Below are positions 697 to 6,086 of a DNA stretch of 64,000 bases, in pieces (position 1 is the first letter of the stretch; each line of letters begins with the position of its first letter). Made by a program: the position numbers and the translations under genes. A model generated the notes under the pieces. That model had not been told where the DNA came from. It saw nothing but the letters and a program-made list of their open reading frames with translations, and did no database searches. Source of the DNA: Naegleria gruberi (Eukaryota); the NCBI GenBank assembly GCA_000004985.1, contig GG738863.1, one strand, 5' to 3'.

Positions 697-1879
697 CTAT
701 TTGAGATTGATTAATTTTTTGAGAAGTCTTGGTGATTTAACCTTTGTGGATGATTGATTCAATTCCTCGTCAAAATCAAAGGTTGTTTCCTTTGTAGGTG
801 AAAGCATATCTTGGCCATCAATGATGGTATCAAAAACACATTCCAACAAATCTCGAGCAGCTGAGCCATTTGTAGCACTGGTCACTCTGACATCCCTCCA
901 CAATTGTGCTCGTCTGTCCTCATCTTTGGCCAAATCAATAAATTGTTTCTGAACAAATTTCATCGAATCTCTATATACATATCCACCAATTTCGTAGAAA
1001 AATCTCCATTTTCTCTTTCGAAATTCCCTCTCTTCTGATGAACAAAAAGAGTATGTACTCTGGAGGAAGGACTGATTGGTTGGATCATCATCGCTACTGC
1101 TATCACTGAAAATTGCAGAAGTATTGAGTGGATCGCCAATAGTTATCGAAATTGGTTTCTCTCTTGTTGATATTGTAGAGCTGCCAGTATTGAAAATATT
1201 ACTACCAATTGAAATGGCCTTACTTGACATTGGTGATCTTTCTGTAGATGTGGTGGTAATTGATGAGATGGATGTACAACTATTGAGTGAAGGTAGGAGA
1301 GATTTGGAAGAAGAAAGTGGACTCGTATCTTCACTCTTACCTGTTATCCCTGGCTCAAATAAATGATATCGTTCCTTATATAAGAGATCAACTTGTTCTT
1401 CATCTATGTCTTTCATCAAACTGTAACACAAAGATCTCCAAACAGTGTCACACGTTGCCACAATATACATTTCATAATTTACAGTACTCAGAACACATAA
1501 ATCATGTGCATCCAAGTAAAAGCAAATGTAAATTAAAATATCACTCGGTAACTTTTGCCAATTTTCCTGTCTAATCTTGAATTCCTCTTCCTCTGTGAGC
1601 ATGTGATGATTTTCAACAACAAATCTCGAAGGTGACATTTTAGGAATAAATGATCCAACATTTAACCCATTTTTCTTTTGTTTTTGAATACTGGCACTCC
1701 TTGCTCTTTGAAATCGTTCCATAGTTTTTGAATTTTGTGCACTTTCGAATGTACCAGGTATTCTCTTTCTCTTTTGTTGAATGGTATGTCTCCTCTTGGC
1801 ATCTCCTGCCATTTTGTGAAAGTTTTTAATTGGTTTGTGAAGACGAATGTGTTTTGGTAAATCATCAAATGCTTCACTA
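697..1879 (-). CDS. F-box domain-containing region, in-frame continuation of the Galpha ORF (possible fusion or mis-joined gene)
   Basis: This is the same continuous minus-strand ORF, with no stop codon after NKKDVFLHKIQ. It contains an F-box consensus, LPSDILIYICFYLDAHDLCVLSTVNYEMY...VWRSL. A Ser/Thr-rich linker follows, then a conserved-looking C-terminal block (RKRKWRFFYEIGGYVYRD...AQLWRDV). No Galpha G5 box (TCATDT) is found in any frame. Confidence 0.5.
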
Positions 1880-2909
1880 ATGTCAAAATATTGAATTTTG
1901 TGAAGAAAAACATCCTTCTTGTTGAACACTAGAAATATTGGTACATTCTCAAAACATGATGCATTGACAATTTCCTCAAATAAGAGCAAACTTTCCTTCA
2001 TTCTATTCGATCGATCATCTTCGTAACAAACTTGATTATATTCTGAAAGTGAGACGATGAAAATTATTCCACTTGTTGCTCCAAATAAGTGAACCCACTT
2101 TTTACGTTCATTCCTCTGGCCACCTATTATGATAAATAAATATTTAATATTAGTTCAAAGCTTATTTCAATACATATATTCTTTAAAAAAACCTACCTGT
2201 ATCAAAAACTCTAATTCTATTATTTCTATAAATGCACTCTGTTTCAACAATACCAGTTGTTTTCACATATGATGACATGACATGCTTTGTTTTTGGCATT
2301 GAATATATATGATCCATCTGTTTCACCAAGTCAGGTAAACAATTTTTGCATTCTCGTTATGAAATGTTCATCAACAATCCTCAGAATATGAATAAAATCC
2401 TCACAATCCAATCTAAGAACACTATTTGCAAATTCCTCATTCTCAATCTTGTTTAATTTCTCATCTGGAAACATACTCGAAAGTGCTCTCAGTACAAACT
2501 GTACCATTTGCACGATATTCGAAAGGATTACTTCACGATAAGATAAATATTCATCATTATCAAATCCTCCATTGAATAGTAATTTAACATTCTTGAAAAG
2601 CGTACTCTTCCTATAAGTTCCAATAAAAACAATTTCCAATATCATTATTCGAATTATATTGATCACCATTCATAAATCAAACATAGTACATCTTGTTAGA
2701 AACATGCCTAAATTTCAACAAACTACTCACCCAACACCTCCTGTCCCCAACATGATCACTCGTTGTTGTGGTAAATTTAAAACATTTGATCCGCCATTCG
2801 AATCTCCCAATCCTTTCAATAATTTAGAAGATGAAGACTTTTTAGAAAGCATGGAACGTGATGATGATTTTCTCAGCGAAGATGATGACGAAGATGTACT
2901 CTGACCCAT
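1880..2909 (-). CDS. Heterotrimeric G-protein alpha subunit (GTPase and helical domain exons); at least 3 introns
   Basis: The protein starts MGQSTSS, a Gly2/Ser6 N-myristoylation consensus. Exon 1 ends ...VIMLGTGGVG at a GTGAGT donor. Exon 2 continues KSTLFKN, completing the P-loop GTGGVGKST, followed by the helical domain. Later exons encode TTGIVETECIY (switch I), RVFDTGGQRNERKKW (switch II) and FLVFNKKDVF (NKxD). Introns of about 70-120 nt have GT..AG ends. One exon junction near 2330 is unresolved and may be a frameshift or a short intron. Confidence 0.8.
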
Positions 2910-3719: not shown

Positions 3720-5999
3720 CTATTCCTCTTCTGAATTTCTTAACAGTAGTAAACGATCTTGGATTTCACGTTCCTTCTTGTCAATACTTCTCTCGAATAA
3801 TTGTGGACAAACTTCAACCAACCAATCTGATTCAATAGTTGTTACATCTCTCATGAATACTTTGGTTGTAAATAAAAGTTCTGTAAATATTACAAACTCT
3901 GGCGGATATTTAAAAAGGACGCTATTAGGATGGATGTAATAAATATCATTGCCTCGTACGGATTTATAGGAACCATCTGATTGTCTTTGTGCTGCATTGG
4001 AAAAGTAACCAGATATTAAACATTTTCTAATAGTATCAATAGGTGGGTCAATATTGCCGTAGCCCACATTTGAATCCATAATTGATTTGATAGGAATGGA
4101 GAATCGTTTGAGTAGTTTTTCAAATTGATGGATAAATTGTTCAACTCTTTGCATGGATTTGTAAGTAATACAATTGTCATAGCACCATTTGCTAGATTTG
4201 TTGTTTTTGAGATAGGACATGTAAATGTTAAGGTATGTCAAATGGTCACCTTCCATAACAGAGAATTTCCTTTTTACATACTCAACCCTATCTTGGAGTT
4301 GTCTGGAGGTTACAAAAACATTTCTCACACTGGTCATGGCACAAATAATGAGCATCTCTTGAGAGCAATTCATATTACCAGAGTGTAGCAGAATTTTAGA
4401 AACGAATGGGTCAGTCGGGAATTCAGCCATTTGTAAACCCAGAGGATTTGTCAATTGACATGAATCATCAAGAGCACCGAGTGCATAAAGAGTTTCCAAT
4501 GATTGGGCCATATGACTAGATGGTGGAGAAGAAAGAAAATCAAAGAATACCAAATTATCAATTCCTAATGCCTTCATCTGGAGAATGATATCTGAGAGAT
4601 TGGATTTTTGAATTTCTGGAATGGTATTTTCCTTAAGCTTTTCATAATCTTGTTCAGTATAGAGACGAAAGCATTTACCATTCATCACTCGTCCTGCTCT
4701 TCCAGCACGTTGTCGTGCTGATGATTTGCTAATTTCTGTCACTACTAGACAATCCCTGTTGGAACGATAATCATAAATTCTCTCCTTTACAAATCCACAA
4801 TCAACTACAAATCTCAGAGAAGGAATAGTAATCGATGTCTCTGCAATATTAGTTGAAATAATGACCTTTCTCTTATCCTTTACAGTATCAAATATTTTCA
4901 TTTGCTCTTCCAAGGATAATCCTGCGTAGAGAGGTAATACGAGCATGTTATCTTTTTTTGCTTCGAATAGAGAATCTTCAATAAGGGATACCAGCTCTTC
5001 AATTTCTTGTTGGCCTGTCAGAAAGACCAACACATCTCCAGATTCTATTGGTTCACTATTATGAATGTTCAAGACGCATTGTAAGCTGGAACGAACATAA
5101 TCTGAGATTGGTTTCTGAATGTAGTAAATATCGACTGGATAGGTTCTCCCTTCAATACTCATAATGTAACAACTCAGATTCAATTGGGGAACATTGAAAA
5201 ATTTGTAAAAATCCTCAGCATCGAGAGTGGCACTCGAAATTATGAGTCTTAGTTCAGGGCGCTTCTGTAGGACCTTCTTTAAAAGTCCTAACAAGATATC
5301 TGTCTTGGTACTCCTTTCATGGACTTCATCAACTATTATGACAGAATAATCGGTCAATAGAGGGTCCACCAACATTTCTCTCAATAACATTCCATCAGTC
5401 ATGTATTTAATCCTTGTAAATTCTGAATATTTTGCATCGAATTGAACACAATATCCGACCAACCCTCCAAGTTCACCATGTGCATTTTCACTTGTTAATA
5501 TTCCACTCCTAGTTGAAATTCCAAAACTATTACTTGCAGCAGAGGAAGAAGAGGAATTAGGAAATGATTCCCTCTTCTCCTCAAACACTCTCTTAGCAGC
5601 ACTAATTGCTGAAATCCTTCTCGGTTGTGTACAACAAATAGATTGTCCATTAGAGCACCATCCACTCTCATACAAATATTGAGGAATTTGTGTCGTTTTT
5701 CCACTGGCAGTCTCTGCACTCACAATCAACACATTGTAATTTTCCAACAAGTACAACATGGAATTCCTAAATTTATGAATAGGTAATTGTCTTCTCTGTT
5801 CATCCAATGATAACTTCCGATGAGGATTATAAACAAATTCCATAACCTCCTGATTTTCATTCCGATCAATAATTGAATCTCGAAACTCTTCATGTGTAGA
5901 ATTTCGGATGGCTTCTGGCGCTTGTTGTCCAGGTTTCCAAAATCCACCACTTTTACTAGGCACCGACCGAGAGGATGATGCTTCCGCTGGTTTAAGCAT
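3720..5999 (-). CDS. DHX35: DEAH-box ATP-dependent RNA helicase, DHX35-like
   Basis: This is a single 759-aa ORF. It carries motif I (AETASGKTTQIPQYL), motif II (DEVHERS), SAT (SATLD), TNIAETSITI and motif VI (QRAGRAGR), plus the HA2/OB C-terminal region. The N-terminal region (YNPHRKLSLDEQRRQLPIHKFRN) and the full-length collinearity match DHX35. Confidence 0.85.
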   Translation of the reverse strand: MLKPAEASSSRSVPSKSGGFWKPGQQAPEAIRNSTHEEFRDSIIDRNENQEVMEFVYNPHRKLSLDEQRRQLPIHKFRNSMLYLLENYNVLIVSAETASGKTTQIPQYLYESGWCSNGQSICCTQPRRISAISAAKRVFEEKRESFPNSSSSSAASNSFGISTRSGILTSENAHGELGGLVGYCVQFDAKYSEFTRIKYMTDGMLLREMLVDPLLTDYSVIIVDEVHERSTKTDILLGLLKKVLQKRPELRLIISSATLDAEDFYKFFNVPQLNLSCYIMSIEGRTYPVDIYYIQKPISDYVRSSLQCVLNIHNSEPIESGDVLVFLTGQQEIEELVSLIEDSLFEAKKDNMLVLPLYAGLSLEEQMKIFDTVKDKRKVIISTNIAETSITIPSLRFVVDCGFVKERIYDYRSNRDCLVVTEISKSSARQRAGRAGRVMNGKCFRLYTEQDYEKLKENTIPEIQKSNLSDIILQMKALGIDNLVFFDFLSSPPSSHMAQSLETLYALGALDDSCQLTNPLGLQMAEFPTDPFVSKILLHSGNMNCSQEMLIICAMTSVRNVFVTSRQLQDRVEYVKRKFSVMEGDHLTYLNIYMSYLKNNKSSKWCYDNCITYKSMQRVEQFIHQFEKLLKRFSIPIKSIMDSNVGYGNIDPPIDTIRKCLISGYFSNAAQRQSDGSYKSVRGNDIYYIHPNSVLFKYPPEFVIFTELLFTTKVFMRDVTTIESDWLVEVCPQLFERSIDKKEREIQDRLLLLRNSEEE

Positions 6000-6086
6000 T
6001 TTTTTTAATAAAATTTAAAATTTTAAATATTTAATGTATTTAATTGTTAACGGTAATAATAATTTATTGAACATGTAGAAAATCGA

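Follow-up and report, generated by a model that had tools for sequence, protein, structure and literature searches.

A G-alpha-type gene with an internal F-box in Naegleria gruberi NEG-M and its relatives

GTPases and G proteins linked to ubiquitin ligases

RhoBTB proteins combine a Rho domain with BTB domains that bind Cullin-3. Rab40 GTPases combine a Rab domain with a SOCS box and serve as substrate receptors of Cullin-5 (PMC8129794, PMC9070665, PMC4812663). The SOCS box recruits Cullin-5 for the ubiquitination of bound partners (PMC8129794, PMC9070665), and Rab40b, which binds Cullin5 through this box, targets EPLIN (PMC8129794). Here we describe a gene on the minus strand of a 64,000-nucleotide (nt) stretch of the genome of Naegleria gruberi NEG-M (contig GG738863.1; hereafter the window, to which all gene coordinates refer). 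The gene encodes a G-alpha subunit whose fold is almost certainly complete and carries, between helices alphaG and alpha4, an insertion of about 280 residues that bears an F-box. It is a member of a conserved G-alpha/F-box family, apparently undescribed, whose named members are all heterolobosean.

Under our working model, the protein would resemble Rab40 in holding a GTPase domain and a box that binds a cullin adaptor in a single polypeptide. However, Rab40 proteins consist of a small Rab with a C-terminal SOCS box that works with Elongin B/C-Cul5, whereas the present protein has an internal F-box suited to Skp1-Cul1, and the two arrangements have unrelated origins. RhoBTB proteins also join a GTPase-like domain to a cullin-adaptor module and share atypical catalytic residues with our protein, but their modules are of the BTB/Cul3 kind and stand in tandem, whereas the F-box here is of the Cul1 type and is inserted within the GTPase fold. 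A Pfam scan of the conceptual protein gave no SOCS-box or BTB match, and its GTPase is of the G-alpha type. The comparison with Rab40 and RhoBTB is meant as one of proteins that may work alike, not of membership in the same group.

Links between heterotrimeric G proteins and ubiquitin ligases include those of yeast Gpa1 with SCF-Cdc4 (SCF, Skp1-Cul1-F-box ligase) and of plant XLG proteins with PUB ligases. The rice G-alpha D1/RGA1 is linked with the U-box ligase TUD1 (PMC3597501), and RGS2 is degraded via FBXO44 (PMC12554172). Under our model, the gene described here would, like these systems, join heterotrimeric G-protein components functionally to ubiquitin ligases; the ligase adaptor in those systems is a separate protein, whereas here the F-box lies within the G-alpha chain. 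To our knowledge, G-alpha and F-box modules, each of them textbook knowledge, otherwise meet only in trans, through ligases that degrade G-alpha, RGS proteins or receptors. The F-box itself resembles those of FBXO-type proteins (e.g. FBXO4, chain 3l2o_B) in its length of about 45 residues and its LP...IL..I..L...DL..L..V...W pattern. Typical F-box proteins, however, have a distinct substrate-binding domain to which the F-box is N-terminal, whereas here the F-box sits within a loop of what is presumed to be the recognition domain. A survey of G-protein evolution described a Naegleria-specific expansion of G-alpha genes and did not mention an F-box (PMC3971589). F-boxes are likewise not mentioned in the Acrasis genome paper, and full-text literature searches turned up no account of an F-box in a G-alpha, though an earlier mention may exist.

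The F-box and the G-alpha fold around it

The conceptual protein matched the Pfam G-alpha profile PF00503 with an E-value of 1e-62 (212.7 bits; cut-off 48.8), and its closest solved chains were those of G-alpha-o/i (3c7k_A and 2gtp_A; E 7e-40). As in canonical G-alpha, we found a P-loop, an all-helical domain, switch I (TTGIVE), a DxGGQRxERKKW stretch, NKxD, beta6/alpha5 and an MGxxxS start. The P-loop GTGGVGKST (GAGESGKST in canonical G-alpha) fits the G1 pattern GxxxxGK[ST]. Switch II, DTGGQRNERKKW, fits DxxGQ, and its DTGGQ keeps the catalytic Gln. The switch I Thr, NKKD and the TSAT of the G5 box are also kept, and the G4 motif is followed by G5 and then by alpha5, as expected of a G-alpha. 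The MGxxxS start is conserved as MGQSTSS in N. gruberi, as MGQNSSV in a Naegleria-like locus from JGI metagenome 3300002220 (L002) and as an in-frame upstream MGNHSSS in N. fowleri, and many relatives begin with MG.

The F-box was recognized by the F-box-like profile PF12937, both in the conceptual protein (E 2e-8, 34.3 bits; cut-off 24.3) and in the isolated segment (E 7.8e-10, 38.8 bits), and by PF00646 in the isolated segment (E 1.7e-5, 25.0 bits; cut-off 20.5). It aligned with the F-box of the solved FBXO4 chain (E 1.3e-3) and keeps the LP/hydrophobic/W pattern of solved Skp1-bound F-boxes. The predicted F-box helices had predicted local distance difference test (pLDDT) values of 84-86 in a compact distant relative (P0007) and of 58-81 in P0001. 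Given these motifs and the PF00503, PF12937 and PDB matches, the elements noticed in a preliminary description of the locus (MGQSTSS, GVGKST, TTGIVE, switch II, NKKD and an F-box in frame downstream of the G-alpha part) are real, far beyond chance. The preliminary description had also proposed searching the conceptual protein with PF00503 and PF00646 and looking for orthologues in related genomes. PF00503 scored above its cut-off in the conceptual protein and PF00646 in the isolated F-box segment, and N. fowleri, Willaertia magna and Acrasis kona proved to have the same G-alpha/F-box architecture.

The preliminary description had stated that the G5 box and the C-terminal stretch of about 90 residues were absent in all frames, and that the reading frame ran instead through the F-box into a conserved-looking block. 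That block is indeed conserved, but it is not novel: it is the alpha4-beta6-alpha5 part of the G-alpha fold, with a degenerate G5 box (TSATNG in place of the canonical TCATDT), and it lies past the F-box in the same exon. When the protein was aligned by MAFFT to G-alpha-i1 and to relatives, its C-terminal block (C block) fell under alpha4-beta6-alpha5: MKFVQKQFIDL... was paired with AAAYIQCQFEDL..., VRVTSATNG with THFTCATDT, and LLECVFDTII with FVFDAVTDVII. At the position of G5, relatives show VTCAVDS or VTCSVDS. The N-terminal part alone scored 208.7 bits against the Pfam G-alpha profile and reached position 278 of 333, and when the insert was excised and the N-terminal part joined to the C block, the score rose to 229.3 bits and the profile was covered to 333 of 333. 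In a profile-profile comparison (hhalign), the C blocks of the family matched the last 95 residues of 57 canonical G-alpha proteins over 68 columns with a probability of 96.3% (E 2e-9), against 0.1% for a control comparison with a helical-domain stretch. The C block of one relative (P0008) matched the G-alpha profile at positions 285-330 on its own, and two canonical G-alpha proteins (P0012 and P0285) matched the C-block half of the family hidden Markov model (HMM). Two relatives, the N. fowleri orthologue and the distant member P0007, were modelled with AlphaFold, and the models superposed on 307-308 of 310 G-alpha-i1 residues, a test that is only partly independent, as the input alignments had already placed the C block under canonical C-termini.

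The protein differs from canonical G-alpha in other respects than the insertion. The arginine finger of switch I (R in RxxTxGI) is replaced by Tyr at the position of G-alpha-i1 Arg178 (SSYVKTTGIVE). The same Tyr occurs in N. fowleri, W. magna and L002, and Acrasis-type members retain Arg. There is no recognisable alphaN helix; the N-terminus is of low complexity and had pLDDT below 50 in the modelled orthologue. A long acidic tail replaces the receptor-coupling C-terminus. The helical domain aligned to residues 13-93 of G-alpha-o, but in N. gruberi it is truncated and frame-shifted, with 22 conserved residues deleted, and in N. fowleri and W. magna it is intact. Elsewhere in the family, Acrasis-type members have LMGSQ in place of DxxGQ, together with a long insertion in the switch I/beta2-beta3 region, and many metagenomic members have T[HK]xD or TNTD in place of NKxD (the non-canonical set comprises P0003, P0005 from Acrasis, P0007, P0011 and P0121-P0138).

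Relatives of the gene and the broken frame in NEG-M

The best match was an N. fowleri protein of 766 amino acids (aa) with both PF00503 and PF12937 (BLASTP, 64% identity over 89% of the query in the best local alignment). Its locus (L001) is flanked as in the window, by a DEAD/DEAH helicase gene upstream and a convergent Tim17-family gene downstream. In N. fowleri and L002 the order of the helicase and the G-alpha/F-box gene is kept; in W. magna it is not. In W. magna (L003, JBEGDK010000031.1), an uninterrupted open reading frame (ORF) of 563 codons at 4365-6056 (26% G+C) spans the helical domain, switch I/II, NKRD, the F-box and VRVTSAVESS up to the stop codon. Acrasis kona has a member of 704 aa. 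A search with an HMM of the region from the F-box to the end against 1.84 billion representatives (clusters at 50% identity) gave 35 proteins with E <1e-10, about 25 of which match both the F-box and the C block. When 30 family representatives were scanned with Pfam, 25 matched PF00503 and 27 matched PF12937, the remainder being short fragments. Most members come from metagenomic contigs, every named one is heterolobosean, and database entries for these proteins read only hypothetical or "F-box domain-containing".

Identity between N. gruberi and N. fowleri was 90% in the GTPase core, 77% in the part of the insert before the F-box, 90% in the F-box and following helices, and 86% in the C block; it was 46% in the Ser/Thr-rich spacer, 31% in the N-terminus and 41% in the tail. 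As the F-box is as conserved as the GTPase core, it has been under the same constraint. At the DNA level, about 48 nt coding for NKKD-alphaG (1855-1925 in the window, about 6346-6506 in L001) are nearly identical in the two species, with one difference, although the proteins are about 64-74% identical overall; this could reflect codon bias or an extra constraint.

The G-alpha cores were compared in a neighbour-joining tree, in which 16 of the 18 F-box members fell into one clade with four long Naegleria paralogues nested inside, and exact monophyly of the F-box members was recovered in 0 of 100 bootstrap replicates. A single origin of the G-alpha/F-box family is plausible rather than established. 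The nested paralogues (P0074, P0081 and P0107 from N. fowleri / N. lovaniensis, and P0077) are 502-611 aa long and have a C block of the family type. Pfam gave no F-box match in any of the four, and P0107 has an F-box-like stretch, LVNSILKLGEKDLQQLSK; the F-box may have been lost or may be degenerate in these proteins.

Two gene models of relatives deserve correction. The NCBI model of the W. magna gene (P0002) splices out 42 residues (GIVE...IIFI, including switch II), and since these are encoded in frame in the continuous 563-codon ORF, the splice is probably a mistake of the gene model. In N. fowleri (VFQX01000030.1, L001 about 4962-5000), the annotated protein begins with MMMKRT. An upstream in-frame ATG gives MGNHSSSHHHSS..., which matches the MGxxxS starts, and the annotated start is probably 13 codons too late.

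In N. gruberi, the exons do not join into a single frame, a point that the preliminary description had missed. The helical-domain exon and the switch I segment lie in different frames, the upstream one ending at 2337 (...QKLF) and the next beginning at 2338 (LPDL...). In a tblastn search with the N. fowleri protein, residues 155-176 had no counterpart in the window, and a search for the missing 22-residue stretch across the whole window returned only noise. At the same site, relatives have 48 coding nt, an intron and 20 coding nt (WFEEPAILRAYHYRHR / YQLPVED), the intron of N. fowleri being 98 nt long (GTAAGT...GATAG). In L002, an intron of 42 nt interrupts the same coding sequence at this position, and W. 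magna has the coding stretch without an intron. The missing residues fall within the conserved G-alpha motif LW.D.GIQ..Y..R..FQL. Because relatives keep the coding stretch and an intron at this junction, the NEG-M sequence carries a deletion, which compared with N. fowleri, W. magna and L002 comprises 22 helical-domain codons (68 nt) and the intron. We consider it fairly probable that this deletion is real in the DNA. The allele as assembled is unable to make the full-length protein, and the NEG-M copy is most likely a very recent loss-of-function allele. The frame downstream is open and highly conserved; therefore, the event must be very recent, or else an artefact of assembly or haplotype.

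The latter leads to the reading that the break is not disabling and that a functional protein is still made, the break being an assembly or cloning artefact, a heterozygous haplotype or an unusual splice. We regard this as a possibility to be taken seriously, albeit on the doubtful side. Downstream, 474 codons are open, with 86-90% identity to N. fowleri in their functional parts, a 58-nt GTTGAT...AACAG interval (2375-2318) restores the frame, and introns can be as short as 42 nt in a close relative. However, N. fowleri, W. magna, L002 and canonical G-alpha all keep the missing residues, which are not found elsewhere in the window. When all frame-restoring GT...AG intervals were enumerated, none kept the conserved sequence or had a good donor site. 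The interval at 2375-2318, too, has a poor donor and removes conserved coding sequence, and an intron there is for this reason only a rival reading. Public annotation offers only a 122-aa partial model, and no independent assembly of the locus was found. Searches for records of the exact products of a 434-aa ORF, of a 112-aa ORF ending at the lesion and of the helicase ORF found none. A different break was seen in L002, where a 37-nt deletion (4200-4215) directly behind NKK disrupts the frame within the stretch that codes for alphaG. Of the four genomic loci in the orthologue group, two are thus broken, at different places.

The layout of the locus is given in Table 1. The public annotation consists of one 122-aa "predicted protein, partial" (P0344), which runs from MPKTKH... 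across the 73-nt intron to ...AFDD; it lacks the P-loop, the F-box and the C-terminus and ends just ahead of the insertion. Elsewhere in the window, the products of four complete ORFs are identical to proteins of N. gruberi NEG-M (EFC45437, 41, 42 and 45), which are encoded on a scaffold of 467,654 nt.

Table 1. Features of the G-alpha/F-box locus and neighbouring genes, in window coordinates.
Feature	Position	Strand	Remarks
G-alpha/F-box gene, whole coding span	697..2909	minus	start ATG 2909, stop TAG 697-699; frame broken at about 2338-2340
Exon 1	2731..2909	minus	MGQSTSS start (MGxxxS, N-myristoylation type), Ser-rich low-complexity N-terminus, first half of P-loop GTGGVG (2731-2747)
Intron 1	2611..2730	minus	120 nt, GTGAGT...TTATAG; splits a P-loop Gly codon
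Exon 2	2340..2610	minus	end of P-loop KST (2601-2610) and helical domain as far as ...ITRMQKL
Lesion	2331..2340	minus	deletion junction ttg/t/tta 2338-2340; TGA 2331-2333 in upstream frame
Shifted-frame segment	2197..2338	minus	LPDLVKQMD..., switch I SSYVKTTGIVE (YVKTTGIVE 2243-2269), ...VFDTG; Tyr for catalytic Arg; within annotated partial model P0344
Intron before last exon	2124..2196	minus	73 nt, GTAGGT...ATAATAG; splice also in annotated partial model P0344
Last exon	697..2123	minus	switch II, alpha3, NKKD, alphaG, F-box insertion, alpha4-beta6/G5-alpha5, tail
Switch II GQRNERKKW	2095..2121	minus	catalytic Gln retained
G4 box NKKD	1912..1923	minus	
Insertion in alphaG-alpha4 surface loop	1024..1854	minus	about 277 codons; basic region, F-box, two helices, Ser/Thr-rich spacer
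Basic region inside insertion	KRRHTIQQKRKR 1762-1797; RARSAS 1690-1707	minus	conserved
F-box QKLPSDILIYICFYLDAHDLCVLSTVNYEMYIVATCDTVWRSLCYS	1420..1557	minus	PF12937, PF00646 and FBXO4 F-box match
Two helices following F-box	1351-1410	minus	
Ser/Thr-rich spacer inside insertion	1036-1350	minus	disordered
Family-specific block FRKRKWRFFYEIGGYVYRDS	964..1023	minus	chain re-enters G-alpha fold; aligns with canonical G-alpha FPEYxG stretch
G-alpha C-terminal elements	817..963	minus	alpha4 892-963; beta6 and G5 VRVTSATNG 865-891; alpha5 817-864
C-terminal tail	700..816	minus	39 residues, partly acidic (TTFDFDEEL); unlike canonical receptor-coupling tail
Tim17/Pmp24-family gene	13-591	plus	convergent; cut by window edge
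DEAH-box helicase gene	3720-5999	minus	HA2 and OB domains

Putative function as a ubiquitin-ligase adaptor

The protein would be anchored at the membrane by N-myristoylation and would bind guanine nucleotide, the G1, G3, G4 and G5 contacts being kept. Hydrolysis of GTP is expected to be slow, since all of the Naegleria/Willaertia clade has Tyr in place of the arginine finger of switch I. With its own F-box, the protein would dock on Skp1-Cul1-Rbx1, and its G-alpha domain would serve an SCF ubiquitin ligase as a module for substrate recognition or targeting that depends on the nucleotide state, a role that might make the protein a cullin-1 counterpart of Rab40/Cullin-5. We give this mechanism, drawn from what is established for the two protein families, an even chance. 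The RARSAS motif (RRRSS in Acrasis) and the Ser/Thr-rich spacer suggest that the protein may also be subject to phospho-regulation.

Upstream of the F-box lie the conserved motifs KRRHTIQQKRKR and RARSAS, whose counterparts are RRRSSV in Acrasis and KRRSSV in P0003; they look like a site for a basophilic kinase or a signal for nuclear localisation. The acidic-aromatic motif TTFDFDEEL in the tail (745-790, minus strand) has the counterpart TNFDFDEDL in N. fowleri, is not conserved in W. magna and could serve as a short linear motif for interactions.

It is also conceivable, though we hold it unlikely, that the F-box does not serve SCF substrate recruitment and is instead a Skp1-only (non-SCF) module, an intramolecular regulator or a device that shortens the lifetime of the G-alpha itself. 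Some F-box proteins do act outside SCF complexes, G-alpha subunits such as yeast Gpa1 are SCF substrates in trans, and the RARSAS/RRRSS motif and the long disordered Ser/Thr spacer that flank the F-box would suit phospho-regulation or turnover. On the other hand, the F-box scores above the Pfam gathering thresholds, has the LPxD/E...L...W pattern of the solved FBXO4 chain and is as conserved as the GTPase core, although score and conservation discriminate only weakly between such uses and a role in SCF recruitment.

Several further points weigh against the reading favoured here. Skp1 binding, nucleotide binding and ubiquitin-ligase activity are all predictions. Binding of G-beta-gamma is doubtful, because the N-terminus is of low complexity and low pLDDT. 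Some family members could be pseudo-GTPases rather than switches, given the change of the switch I Arg to Tyr and the degenerate DxxG or NKxD motifs in other members. The taxonomic range given for the family is provisional, most members being metagenomic. Finally, because the N. gruberi and L002 loci are both broken, the gene may be dispensable, or contigs of this kind may be error-prone.

The architecture itself leaves far less room for doubt. It is most improbable that the G5 box and the C-terminal helix were lost and replaced by an F-box and an unrelated conserved block in a C-terminal fusion. Such a fusion would account for the facts that the Pfam G-alpha match on the uninterrupted protein ends near profile position 278-320, that the isolated C block of N. 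gruberi has no Pfam match of its own and that the canonical TCATDT string is missing; the excision score, the hhalign comparison and the superposition contradict it. Still less probable are two adjacent genes (a truncated G-alpha gene and an F-box gene) or an assembly chimera misread as one ORF: the annotated N. gruberi model does end at ...AFDD, just ahead of the insert, and gene callers break L002 into separate ORFs, but in DNA of 34% G+C, 474 codons stay open in one frame from switch II, past the F-box and G5, to the stop. The same order recurs in W. magna, in the syntenic N. fowleri locus, in 25 family representatives and in Acrasis kona. Without what lies beyond the F-box, the G-alpha fold is not complete, and the W. 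magna ORF, which needs no intron prediction, excludes two genes or a missed intron for the family.

The preliminary description is thus confirmed in part as an observation and supported in part as an interpretation. The chimera that it had considered is real, as the N. fowleri synteny, the W. magna ORF, the Acrasis kona member and 25 of the 30 representatives show, but its anatomy is that of an insertion and not of a fusion. The two genes, missed intron or assembly lesion that it had offered instead find no support at the G-alpha/F-box junction, and a lesion does exist, but in the helical domain.

Taken as a whole, a conserved family of G-alpha proteins with a built-in F-box, an SCF-type use of that F-box and a damaged copy in NEG-M seem to us the likelier account of the locus. 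A more far-reaching reading, which we put forward tentatively, is that of a heterolobosean family of nucleotide-gated SCF substrate receptors, with dozens of paralogues, in which the GTP/GDP state of a G-alpha anchored at the membrane would directly decide which partner (receptor, effector or G-beta-gamma) is ubiquitinated. The family would then be an independent, cullin-1-based invention of the principle known from Rab40 with cullin-RING ligase 5 (CRL5) and RhoBTB with CRL3, achieved by placing the adaptor box within the GTPase fold.

For annotation, the consequences concern the 122-aa fragment in N. gruberi, the 42-residue mis-splice in W. magna and the late start in N. fowleri, and the frame break in NEG-M, an axenic laboratory strain, calls for caution in any study of this protein in that strain. 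If the proposed mechanism is true, a nucleotide switch at the membrane would be directly coupled to cullin-1 ubiquitination, and the family would provide a third, independent case of a GTPase that serves as a cullin-RING substrate receptor. The model could be put to the test in amoebae that are tractable, among them the pathogen N. fowleri, in which the gene is intact.

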